A stretch of 64,000 bases of DNA. Origin: Protoeuglena noctilucae (lineage: Eukaryota). The notes beneath the pieces are model-generated. The model worked only from the letters and a program-made list of their open reading frames with translations. It was not told where the DNA came from and searched no databases. This document shows positions 1,043 through 64,000 of the stretch, one piece after another. Each line of letters begins with the position of its first letter. The first letter of the stretch is position 1. The position numbers and the translations under genes were made by a program. Location of the stretch: NCBI GenBank assembly GCA_958009085.1, contig OY253673.1:1302001-1366000 (forward strand). The letters are read 5' to 3'.

Positions 1043-2254
1043 ATGGCGACGGGGACCAACCCCATCAAGTACAAGCTGGTCTTTGTTGGGGACCAGTCTG
1101 TGGGGTGGGTCCTGCATCAAGCGCGGGGCTGAGGAGGAGGGCATGGCCCTGCGCCGCGAGCGCTCCGGCCCTCTCCAGCTGGCCGATCGGCCGACGGACG
1201 CCGGCTTCTCTGTATACGCAGGAAAACGGGGATTGTCATGCGATTCATGTACGATAAGTTCGATTCCAACTACCAGGCGACCATCGGGATCGATTTCCTT
1301 TCAAAGGCGAGGAAACACGCAGCCCTGCCGTCCCCGCGGGGTCTCAGGGCCTCCGCCATTGGATCTAGACTCCATGTAGTAAGCGGGAGGTGGCTGGCGC
1401 TTAACGGAGCGTCCGCGTCCCGCGTGGCACGAGGGGAGGGCCGGCCTGCGTTCGTTTCTGCAGACGATGTATCTCGAAGACAGGGCGGTCCGCCTGCAGT
1501 TGTGGGACACCGCCGGGCAGGAACGGTTCCAGTCGTTGATACCGGCCTACATCCGGGACAGCGCGGTGGCCGTGTGCGTGTACGACGTCACCAGCCGCAA
1601 GTCTTTCCAAGCCACGCAGCGATGGGTGAGGCCGGTCACTCTGCGATGGCGATCCCACCCATCGATGCTGTAAATGCGAGTGAACTTGCGACCCTGCCGG
1701 CCTCCCACGGCGCTCGGGGCGCGTGACTCGCCACCGTTGCTCCCGTTCATGCCAGGTCGACCAAGTCCGCGACGAGCGCGGAGACGACGTGATCATCGTG
1801 TTGGTCGGGAATAAAGTGGATCGGGCTAGCGACCGGGAAGTGAGCGCGGAGGAGGGGGAGGCGAAGGCCAAGGACCTACGGGCCCTTTTCATGGAGGTGA
1901 GGTGTGGTCGGGTGCTTGAGGGCCTGTGGCGCACTCTGGTGCGTAGAGGGCGCGGCCGACGCGACGCCGAGTGAGCACGGCGTTACTTCCGAGGCCAGTT
2001 TTTGGATCTTGGCTGCACCAGTGAACCACGGAAACCTCGCGTCACTGCCGCAGACGTCGGCCAAGAGCGGGTATAACGTCAAGGCGCTTTTCAAGAAGAT
2101 CGTGGGTGCTCTGGCGGAGCTGGAACACGACGCGGGGGACGGGGACGCGGGGGCCGGCGGGGCGCACGGGCAGGCGGTGGGCACGGTCATCACGGGGTCG
2201 CAGCTGTCGAGCTCTGCACCCAAGCCCAAAGCGGCCACGTCCTGCTGCGCATGA
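1043..2254 (+). CDS. RAB6: Rab6/RabH small GTPase, 5 exons
   Basis: Spliced motifs [54 protein letters not shown]-terminal CCA prenylation motif. Intron 2 has a GC donor at 1307. Confidence 0.95.
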
Positions 2255-2970
2255 CTGGAGCGGCGCAGATGCTGCGTGCTGGTTTGCTCGGCTTGTGCCG
2301 CACTCCCTTTCCCTCGTTCAAGTCCGGTCAGCCAGGCTGTCGTCAGGTGCAAGTGCCCTCGTGCGGAGTGGGTAGGGGACAGGAACACTCTTGCGACTGT
2401 GCGTGTGACACAAACTGGTCACAGCGAACGCAAACGGCCTCGAGCGCGCGCTTTATGGGTGTGGAATCGCACACACACTTTGCGGAAGCTTACTCCTAGG
2501 TCTGCAAAGTCTGGAATGAGCGAAGCACATCGCTTGCTTCCACTGCCAACATGGCAGTGAACAAGCCGGACGCGGTAGCCGCTGCCCTGAATGCGGAGGC
2601 CAGCAAGGGGCCGACAGCAGGTGCGAAATTTTCCGTGGTGCACCGCCTTGGCCTCGCCTTGGGACGGGTTTAACTGTGCTAATGCTCCTTAGCATAATCT
2701 GCAAACGATGCAACAGTAGCCAGGTATTGTGCGCACTCCTCGCGCTGCATGCCTTCCACACATGCACGTGGCCCGTGCGGGGGCGGTGCTCCGTCAGCCG
2801 TCCCTATCTCGCCCTGCTTGCCGCATGGCTATGTGACATAATAATAGCGCAGCGTGTCGCGCAAATGGACGAACGCGAGGGCCTTTCTCCCGTGCGCAGG
2901 GCCTCCACGTGCCGCGGGGCCCGCCGGGAGTGCGAATTTGGCGAACACAGGAGGAGCGCCCTCTCCCGGA

Positions 2971-62385: not shown

Positions 62386-62591
62386 GACACACTGGGTGCT
62401 TTGCTGCTGCCTTTGCTGCCGCCACTGTCCCACACGCCCGTCCACTTCTCTAGTTTGTCGGCCGCTCATCTAGTCGGCCTTCCTTAGCAGAGTGAAAGAG
62501 TTCACAGTGACTCCGCGCTTGCAGCTTGCCACGCCGTGCCGCTGCAAGCCCACCACACACCACCGCATGCCCCATCGCCCGCCAGGCGTCC

Positions 62592-64000
62592 CTAAGCCGC
62601 AATGGCCTCCCCGCGCACTCCAGATCGCTTCTTAGCCGAACCCCCCGGCCTCGGCGCTGCTTCGTTGTTGACGCTCAGCGACCCCAGCAGCGACCGCACC
62701 GCCTCCCTTTCAGATGCCTCTGACGCTGCGTCACCGCGGCTCTGCGTCTCCGATTCGTCGCGAGAGGCTGCGGGGGGGATGGGGGTGGATTGTAGGTGTG
62801 ACTGGGCGGGGTGGGAGAGAGAGATGGCAGGGGACACTGACATGTGTGGGGGACATGGGACGGAGCATCCATGCACACCCCCTCCCACACCTACTCCCTC
62901 GCCGGCACCTGCCCCATGCACTCCCACTCCACTCCCTCCCCCATACACGCCCACCCCCACTCACCCGCACCCTGCCCCTCCCCCTGCGGCCCATCCTCGA
63001 TGTCCACCAGGTCCACCCACTCGCGCGCATGGGGCGGCAGCCCCGCCTGCTCCTTCCAGTGATCGACAAGCTTCTTCAGTCGCATCATCTCCTTGCTTGA
63101 CTCGTTCTTGGTCACGCTGCAGGTGTGTGGGGGAGAGTGGTGGGTCAGGGGGGAGCAGTGCGTGTGGTTGTGTGTGGGAGGGGATGGAGATAAGATGGGA
63201 CGTGTTGGATGGCCATGTGGGGTGGGGTGTTGAGGTGATGTAAATGGGAAACATTGCGAGCCTCTGATGCGTGCTGCGAACTCGCGCTAGCCTTGGTCAC
63301 CACCACCGTCCTCCCTCCCCCATCTATCCCCTCGCCAGTTCTTGCTAATCCCCATTCCACCACTCCCCCTTCCCCGACTCATCCCCATACCCCCTCGCCT
63401 GTTCTTGATGGTCCGCACGCGCTGGGCATACGTGAGCGAGTTCTGCGTCTCGTCGAGGTTGCCGTCCGTGGGGGACACGTTGACGAACATGAGCGTCTTG
63501 GCGTTGCCGCCGAGCGAGTCGGACATCAGCATGGTCAGTTTTGAATTCCGGTAGGGCACGTGGGGGGTGCCGGAGGCCAGGGCCGAGATGACGTCCCCCA
63601 GCGCGCTCAGGGACTTGTTGATCGCCGCCGCCTCCTTCTGCTGCACGCCCTCGGAGCCGGACTTCTTGAGGCGCTCCGAGCCAGCCAGGTCCACGAAGGA
63701 GAGCTTGCCGCGAGTGACGGACTGCGGGGGTGGGGGGGTGGGGGTGGTGGGTGGGTTGACATGCGCGGGGTGGGGATGGGGTTGAGGGGTGGGTGAAGGG
63801 GATGGGCGTGGGGTGCTGGTAAGGGTGCGAGGTGCCGGTTTCGCTTCAGCACCGCTGTTAATGTCCAGTCGGGTTGATGGAAAGGTGCAGGGGTGGTGTC
63901 GCGAGTTGCCACAATCAGTCACACCCCTGCGTCACCACACGCCACCCCCGCTGCTGCACCCCGCTATGCCACGTCCCCTGCCATGCCACAACCCCCTCCC
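62592..64000 (-). CDS. KCBP: Kinesin-like calmodulin-binding protein (kinesin-14), last three exons; the window ends in an intron
   Basis: Exon 63721-63398: [42 protein letters not shown]. Exon 63116-62965: calmodulin-binding helix [19 protein letters not shown]. Last exon 62767-62592. Confidence 0.92.

Follow-up and report, generated by a model that had tools for sequence, protein, structure and literature searches.

Frequent GC-AG introns, mostly with GCGAG donors, predicted in a 64-kb window of the Protoeuglena noctilucae genome

GC-AG introns are given as about 1.2% of plant introns (Pucker and Brockington, 2018; PMC6310983) and as less than 1% of introns in mammals (Churbanov et al., 2008; PMC2490688), and in such ordinary U2-type GC-AG introns the remaining donor positions are reported to lie nearer to the consensus, which compensates for the C at +2 (PMC2490688). 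In the haptophyte Emiliania huxleyi, with 65% G+C, a GC donor was reported at 56% of 241 hand-mapped junctions, at a GC to GT ratio of about 60/40 and with support from reverse transcription-polymerase chain reaction, and was attributed by the authors to the GC content of the genome (Feldmesser et al., 2014; PMC4028052). Among GC-rich green algae, supplementary file 8 of PMC6310983 gives major non-canonical splice sites, that is GC-AG plus AT-AC, as 173 of 2044 (8.5%) in Ostreococcus tauri, 8057 of 114,347 (7.0%) in Micractinium conductrix, 7090 of 124,435 (5.7%) in Chlorella sorokiniana and 496 of 8831 (5.6%) in Micromonas pusilla. The main text of that paper does not single out these algae, and our search of the literature on GC-AG introns in green algae, Chlamydomonas and Ostreococcus found no text discussing a high GC-AG share. 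Here we analysed a window of 64,000 bases, the whole stretch from position 1,302,001 to 1,366,000 of contig OY253673.1 (assembly GCA_958009085.1) of Protoeuglena noctilucae, in which 19 of 119 predicted introns are proposed to start with GC, all but one of them with GCGAG.

The introns of the window resemble each of these systems in part. As in the ordinary U2-type GC-AG introns of plants and animals, they start with GC, end in an AG acceptor, have tighter donors than the GT class and share its acceptors; unlike those, they are about 13 times as frequent (19/119), and their consensus is GCGAG, following the GTGAG of the species, and not GCAAG. Emiliania huxleyi, as described in PMC4028052, likewise combines a genome of about 65% G+C with a routine GC donor, a canonical AG acceptor and mis-modelling by GT-preferring predictors, whereas here GC is the minority (16%), is restricted to perfect-consensus sites and occurs in a genome that is green-lineage-like, not haptophyte. 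With the GC-rich green algae of supplementary file 8 the window has in common the green lineage, a G+C content of 60-67% and a several-fold excess of GC-AG introns over the plant mean, although its own share is about twice the highest listed there (19/119 vs 8.5%, P 0.0056). Based on the findings below, we propose that these are most probably ordinary U2-type GC-AG introns whose share has become unusually high (about 16% in the window) in a green-alga-like nuclear genome rich in introns and with 66% G+C, and that no change of the splicing machinery is needed to account for them.

GC donors in predicted genes and at homology-anchored junctions

Genes were predicted on the two strands with a finder self-trained on the window only, with six long periodic open reading frames (ORFs) as seeds; coding sequence was scored by a Markov model of period three and splice sites by weight matrices for donors and acceptors, and introns had to keep the frame and to measure 45-1500 nt. 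The finder returned 14 genes and 119 introns, 97 with GT and 22 with GC donors, with a median intron length of 157 nt, in sequence of 65.6% G+C. An earlier note on this DNA had proposed 19 GC donors, and all 19 read G-C on the strand concerned (18 GCGAG and one GCAAG, with AG preceding 18 of them) and were recovered independently among the 22 GC donors of the finder; for the kinesin gene the GC donor is present, but the position that had been given, 63397, is that of the C, and the donor G lies at 63398. The gene names of that note, namely RAB6, RRP5, PIEZO, S9A peptidase, KCBP-type kinesin and outer-arm dynein intermediate chain, were borne out by Pfam and PDB matches. The dynein chain is closest to Chlamydomonas IC78, and this and the best matches of the KCBP protein suggest that the organism is a green-lineage alga.

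In the frame-keeping model all 19 introns, together with an additional candidate at 61897, start with GC and end with AG (Table 1). The intron scores negative for coding and both flanking exons score positive at 19 of 19 sites, and reading through the intron brings a stop or a frame shift in most of them. The use of nearby GT donors had been named in the earlier note as what would speak against its claim; as judged by scoring, in-frame GT alternatives are mostly absent or weak. With the acceptor held fixed, none exists at 4 of the 19 sites; at 14 the best one ranks no higher than the 12th percentile of the GT donors of the window, and the alternative at 35942 reaches the 26th. As far as DNA and protein comparison show, a GC start for about one intron in six seems to be real.

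For eight of the predicted junctions (1307, 4680, 18309, 20308, 41571, 53951, 54690 and 63398), homologues or profiles settle the position to the residue. The exons flanking 1307 in RAB6 match residues 15-42 and 43-96 of PDB 2e9s_A without a gap and positions 12-39 and 41-93 of the Ras hidden Markov model (HMM), and the best in-frame GT alternative, at the 4th percentile, would add 24 residues. At 41571 the flanks match positions 15-50 and 53-87 of the PF10497 HMM, and use of a GT alternative would cost 18 residues or bring in 27; the RAB6 and zinc-finger junctions are those that the earlier note had placed within conserved motifs. In the coiled-coil gene, the homologue P0001 aligns without a gap across the junction at 4680, this match is lost on read-through, and the GT alternative adds 14 residues. 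The RRP5 protein of the window, aligned with 11 full-length RRP5 homologues, is gapless at the 18309 junction, where the GT alternative deletes four residues from an S1 domain, and at 20308 it is gapless against 10 of the 11, the eleventh being without the region; there is no in-frame GT alternative at 20308, and a GT-only model breaks the gene there.

In the S9A gene, the GC model at 53951 is gapless against P0004 and leaves one residue unmatched in P0003, whereas under the GT-only model a gap of six residues opens and the match is lost. The flanks of 54690 match positions 111-223 and 237-350 of the Peptidase_S9_N HMM, with about 12 residues spanning the 13 positions between; the homologues P0003 and P0004 are gapless across this junction, and both are without the three residues that the GT alternative would insert. 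At 63398 in the KCBP-type gene, the exon upstream extends to residue 329 of PDB 1sdm_A and the second residue of the downstream exon aligns with residue 332, so that the split codon and one residue occupy 330-331, and the GT alternative deletes 11 motor residues. These junctions bear directly on the reading of the GC donors as an artefact, either of wrong models in which nearby GT donors are in fact used or of assembly errors with T read as C. In-frame GT alternatives do exist at 15 of the 19 sites, which speaks for such a reading, but they change 3-24 residues at the eight homology-fixed junctions, 14 of the 15 score no better than the 12th percentile, and 19 independent T-to-C errors exactly at +2 of frame-keeping donors are not credible; we hold an artefact to be extremely improbable.

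The choice of GC donors was also stable against the settings of the finder. A GC prior of 1% in the self-trained model still gave 22 GC donors with all 19 claimed ones included, a GC penalty of -7 nats kept 16 of the 19 and one of -10 nats kept 9, and removal of the penalty gave 24 GC donors among 120 introns, that is, just two more. After training on GT donors only, 17 GC donors were chosen at a GC prior of 1%, of which 16 were claimed ones (16/19), and all 19 claimed donors were chosen at a prior of about 12%. Decoy dinucleotides admitted under the same rules yielded 4 (GA) and 9 (GG) donors vs 22 for GC, and gains over the GT-only model of +9 and +28 vs +113 nats, and the decoy donors lay almost all inside introns that carry claimed GC donors, as stand-ins for these. 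The GT-only model itself left 94 introns unchanged and gave the remainder weak donors such as gta/GTAAGC and ctc/GTGCGC (the slash marks the exon-intron boundary here and below); under it RRP5 fell into three genes and the TPR-DnaJ gene into two, and residues were gained or lost in the S9A peptidase, RAB6, KCBP and further proteins.

Frequency and context of the GC donors

The GC share of the window comes to 19/119, or 16% (95% confidence interval (CI) 10-24%), with about 19-20 of some 117-119 introns concerned, and GCGAG as a routine alternative to GTGAG, as had been proposed, therefore stands far above the plant mean of 1.2% given in PMC6310983 (binomial P about 5e-16 for 19 donors, and 1e-4 for 8). 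It could be argued that the GC-AG introns are real and that the window overstates them, just the homology-fixed donors and a few others being true and the genome-wide share lying near the level of other GC-rich green algae, about 5-8%. The homology-fixed junctions alone set a lower bound of 8/119, or 6.7% (CI 3-13%), and the annotations in supplementary file 8 of PMC6310983 place the major non-canonical sites of four such algae at 5.6-8.5%, both of which would agree with an overstated share. However, in the five homology-anchored genes GC donors account for 8 of 43 introns (18.6%), which exceeds even 8.5% (P 0.027), and the donors predicted ab initio lie at the 77th-99th percentile (60325 at the 37th) and have poor GT alternatives or none. 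An overstatement of this kind is thus considered unlikely.

The GC donors are embedded in a tighter context than the GT donors. The complete motif is present as AG/GCGAG in 18 of 22 GC donors and as AG/GTGAG in 24 of 97 GT donors (Fisher P 1e-6), with A at -2 in 19/22 vs 55/97, A at +4 in 21/22 vs 66/97 and G at +5 in 21/22 vs 86/97, and the median donor score by position weight matrix (PWM), excluding +1 and +2, is 5.51 for GC vs 3.81 for GT (Mann-Whitney P 7e-5). Since only two GC donors are gained without the penalty, this tightness is not merely an effect of that penalty. The suggestion that recognition of the 5' splice site is relaxed or altered in this lineage is therefore not sustained by the donor context, in which the GC class is the stricter one, nor by the small gain when GC is left unpenalised. 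The acceptors of the two classes are alike (PWM medians 4.48 for GC and 4.53 for GT, P 0.75), as are the base composition and the length of the introns (median 178.5 nt in the GC and 151 nt in the GT class).

At perfect-consensus donors C is nearly as common as T (18 vs 24), and AGGCGAG on the sense strand is used as often as AGGTGAG, being a predicted donor in 18 of 24 and 24 of 30 occurrences, respectively. Such near-indifference to +2 would fit an altered reader of the 5' splice site, either a variant of U1 small nuclear RNA (snRNA) or a change in U6 or Prp8, that accepts or pairs with a C there; but hardly any GC donor lies outside sites that are perfect at the other positions, as if the C still cost binding energy, and PMC2490688 reports the same pattern in species with standard U1. 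An Rfam scan of the window gave 0 matches and no snRNA gene, U1 and U6 included, hence no positive evidence for a changed reader, which we judge to be very unlikely.

Other known classes of intron were considered as well. U12-type (minor) introns have donors of the (A/G)TATCCTT type, and this assignment was rejected, the donors here being GCGAG or GCAAG followed by variable bases. Introner elements, the repeated intron families as in Micromonas, were rejected too, as an all-against-all blastn of the 119 introns found no family and similarity among introns was limited to low-complexity GTGGGT-type repeats. Runs of the GTGGGT/ACCCAC microsatellite are common to the introns 18309-18589, 22139-22304, 22901-23096 and 24032-24343, on both strands.

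The proposal of ordinary U2-type introns could then work as follows. The donor consensus of the species is AG/GTGAG, and C would replace T at +2 where -2, -1, +3, +4 and +5 all match, the perfect pairing of the 5' end of U1 snRNA at the other donor positions offsetting the lone mismatch with C; frame, coding potential and homology still single out such a site as the donor. GC-biased mutation or gene conversion may then move such tolerant sites from T to C, and because the bias would act on tolerant sites only, GC donors would be expected to gather at strong sites and to be absent from weak ones.

Several points weigh against this proposal. Nine of the claimed donors, marked in Table 1, come from ab initio prediction only, and two metagenome scans, with the exon 4934-5152 and with the PIEZO exon 24346-24843, found no relative and no complementary DNA. 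At 5153 and 5397, a single-intron or exon-skipping model may apply to the pair, and 22741 is the least certain site, as the 159-nt exon that precedes it could be skipped in frame. The tightness of the GC donors is partly built in by the GC penalty of the finder, the lower bound of 6.7% is no higher than the values published for other GC-rich green algae, and the rate is an estimate from one 64-kb window, not a genome-wide one. Finally, both the pairing with U1 and the GC-biased drift are steps that we infer.

Coordinates of the introns and other features of the window

Table 1. GC-AG introns of the window, with the slash marking the exon-intron boundary and the type of evidence for each junction
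Gene	Intron	Strand	Donor	Evidence and remarks
RAB6	1307..1463	+	aag/GCGAGG	homology; acceptor cag/ACG, phase 0
Coiled-coil gene (2591-6523)	4680..4933	+	gag/GCGAGT	homology
Coiled-coil gene (2591-6523)	5153..5317	+	aag/GCGAGC	ab initio only
Coiled-coil gene (2591-6523)	5397..5511	+	gag/GCGAGG	ab initio only
DNAI1/IC78 (outer-arm dynein intermediate chain)	8712..8975	-	cag/GCGAGG	consistent with homologue
RRP5	12468..12667	+	aag/GCGAGT	consistent with homologues
RRP5, inside S1 domain	18309..18589	+	aag/GCGAGT	homology
RRP5, HAT/TPR part	20308..20592	+	cag/GCGAGC	homology
PIEZO, cap region	22476..22741	-	cag/GCGAGA	ab initio only
PIEZO	35748..35942	-	cag/GCGAGG	ab initio only
PIEZO	38085..38219	-	gag/GCGAGG	ab initio only; best GT alternative at 11th percentile
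Large gene (40716-49914), zf-4CXXC_R1 zinc finger	41571..41779	+	gag/GCGAGT	homology
Large zinc-finger gene (40716-49914)	45067..45262	+	cag/GCGAGG	ab initio only
Large zinc-finger gene (40716-49914)	46042..46168	+	aag/GCGAGG	ab initio only
Large zinc-finger gene (40716-49914)	46778..46902	+	atg/GCGAGT	ab initio only
S9A prolyl-oligopeptidase family	53859..53951	-	cag/GCGAGG	homology
S9A prolyl-oligopeptidase family	54612..54690	-	cag/GCGAGC	homology
TPR-DnaJ gene	60204..60325	-	cag/GCAAGG	ab initio only; GCAAG donor
Small SNARE-like gene	61897..61996	+	cag/GCGAGA	ab initio only; extra candidate, plausible
KCBP-type kinesin-14	63117..63398	-	cag/GCGAGG	homology

Two further junctions are consistent with homologues, which do not decide them. 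The flanks of 8975 align with Chlamydomonas IC78 as far as residue 224 on one side and from residue 249 on the other, the junction lying in a variable charged linker that does not discriminate, and its donor is at the 98th percentile by PWM; those of 12468 align to conserved RRP5 blocks on either side of a linker of variable length, no GT alternative being in frame there and read-through reaching a stop after 5 nt. Among the donors predicted ab initio, 46042 is at the 99th PWM percentile with a stop after 12 nt of read-through, 35942 is at the 87th percentile vs the 26th of its GT alternative with a stop after 18 nt, and for 5397 no GT alternative is in frame and read-through reaches a stop after 20 nt. 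A weakly scoring exon of 79 nt follows the intron at 5153, and the rival there is a single 352-nt intron with a weak GT donor. The exon before the 22741 intron (22742-22900) has no Pfam or PDB match. The donor at 46778 is the sole claimed GCGAG donor without A at -2, that at 60325 is at the 37th PWM percentile in a gene that the GT-only model splits, and the last exon of the gene with the additional candidate at 61897 has a weak SNARE-domain match (E 0.045).

The predicted GC donors at 31342 and 48191 were discounted as doubtful, with a poor context and no stop on read-through. In both regions the GT-only and the GC-allowing models are unconvincing, with a 58-nt intron and a GCGATG donor in 31285-31575 on the minus strand, and with either a GCGGGG donor or a 48-nt intron in 47986-48382 on the plus strand.

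The PIEZO model (21995-40100, minus strand) is very large, with 30 exons and 4089 residues, and long low-complexity inserts separate its conserved helical units, Pfam matches being confined to the C-terminal anchor and the cap; a homologue search among proteins of up to 2000 residues found no match for it. A search of the ESM Atlas returned generic WD40 clusters only, which gave no hint of the taxonomy. In the protein-disulfide-isomerase model (57833-58678, minus strand) the initial part of the 282-residue first exon has no thioredoxin match and looks non-coding, and the adjoining single-exon gene of 39 residues (56083-56199, minus strand) is probably spurious. The six exons at 50415-52019 (minus strand) encode a Thr/Ser/Ala-rich protein of 309 residues with a signal-peptide-like start and no Pfam match. 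On the plus strand, the 3' half of RRP5 (16001-20000) has a strong skew of G over C (+0.235), well above the remainder of the window.

The chlorophycean poly(A) signal is TGTAA. Within 900 nt past the stop codons of 13 gene ends (12 sizeable models and the doubtful ORF at 56083-56199), TGTAA was not enriched and AATAAA was absent, and the window as a whole holds 31 TGTAA against about 38 expected. The database protein P0005 is 99% identical to an RRP5 exon (15800-16582, plus strand) but continues into the intron until a stop. The public protein sets for the organism seem, from such matches, to be prokaryote-style ORF calls on genomic DNA and not spliced models; P0002 and P0005, ORF calls on genomic DNA from the same or a near-identical strain, were accordingly rejected as transcript evidence.

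Significance for GC-rich green-lineage genomes

A raised GC-AG share is already in print for GC-rich algae, and the window is a further case that opens no new question by itself. Its practical weight lies mainly in annotation, where gene finders miss such introns: a finder restricted to GT breaks or alters genes of the window, and therefore annotation of the genome of this organism must allow GC donors, at a prior of 10-20%. In addition, the window provides a green-lineage data point on how GC-AG frequency goes with the GC content of a genome, and it points to a rise limited to donors that are perfect elsewhere, as a model of compensation plus mutation bias predicts.

More tentatively, this could be the highest GC-AG share in the green lineage to date, above 10% genome-wide, with T and C at +2 nearly interchangeable at otherwise perfect donors, although we would not yet favour this over a lesser share. 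If it were true, position +2 would be drifting toward the base composition of the genome, and the organism would represent a natural intermediate between the ordinary level of about 1% and the roughly 60% of Emiliania. It would then also offer a test of how far a core splice signal can be moved by GC pressure on its own or by a tolerant variant of U1.

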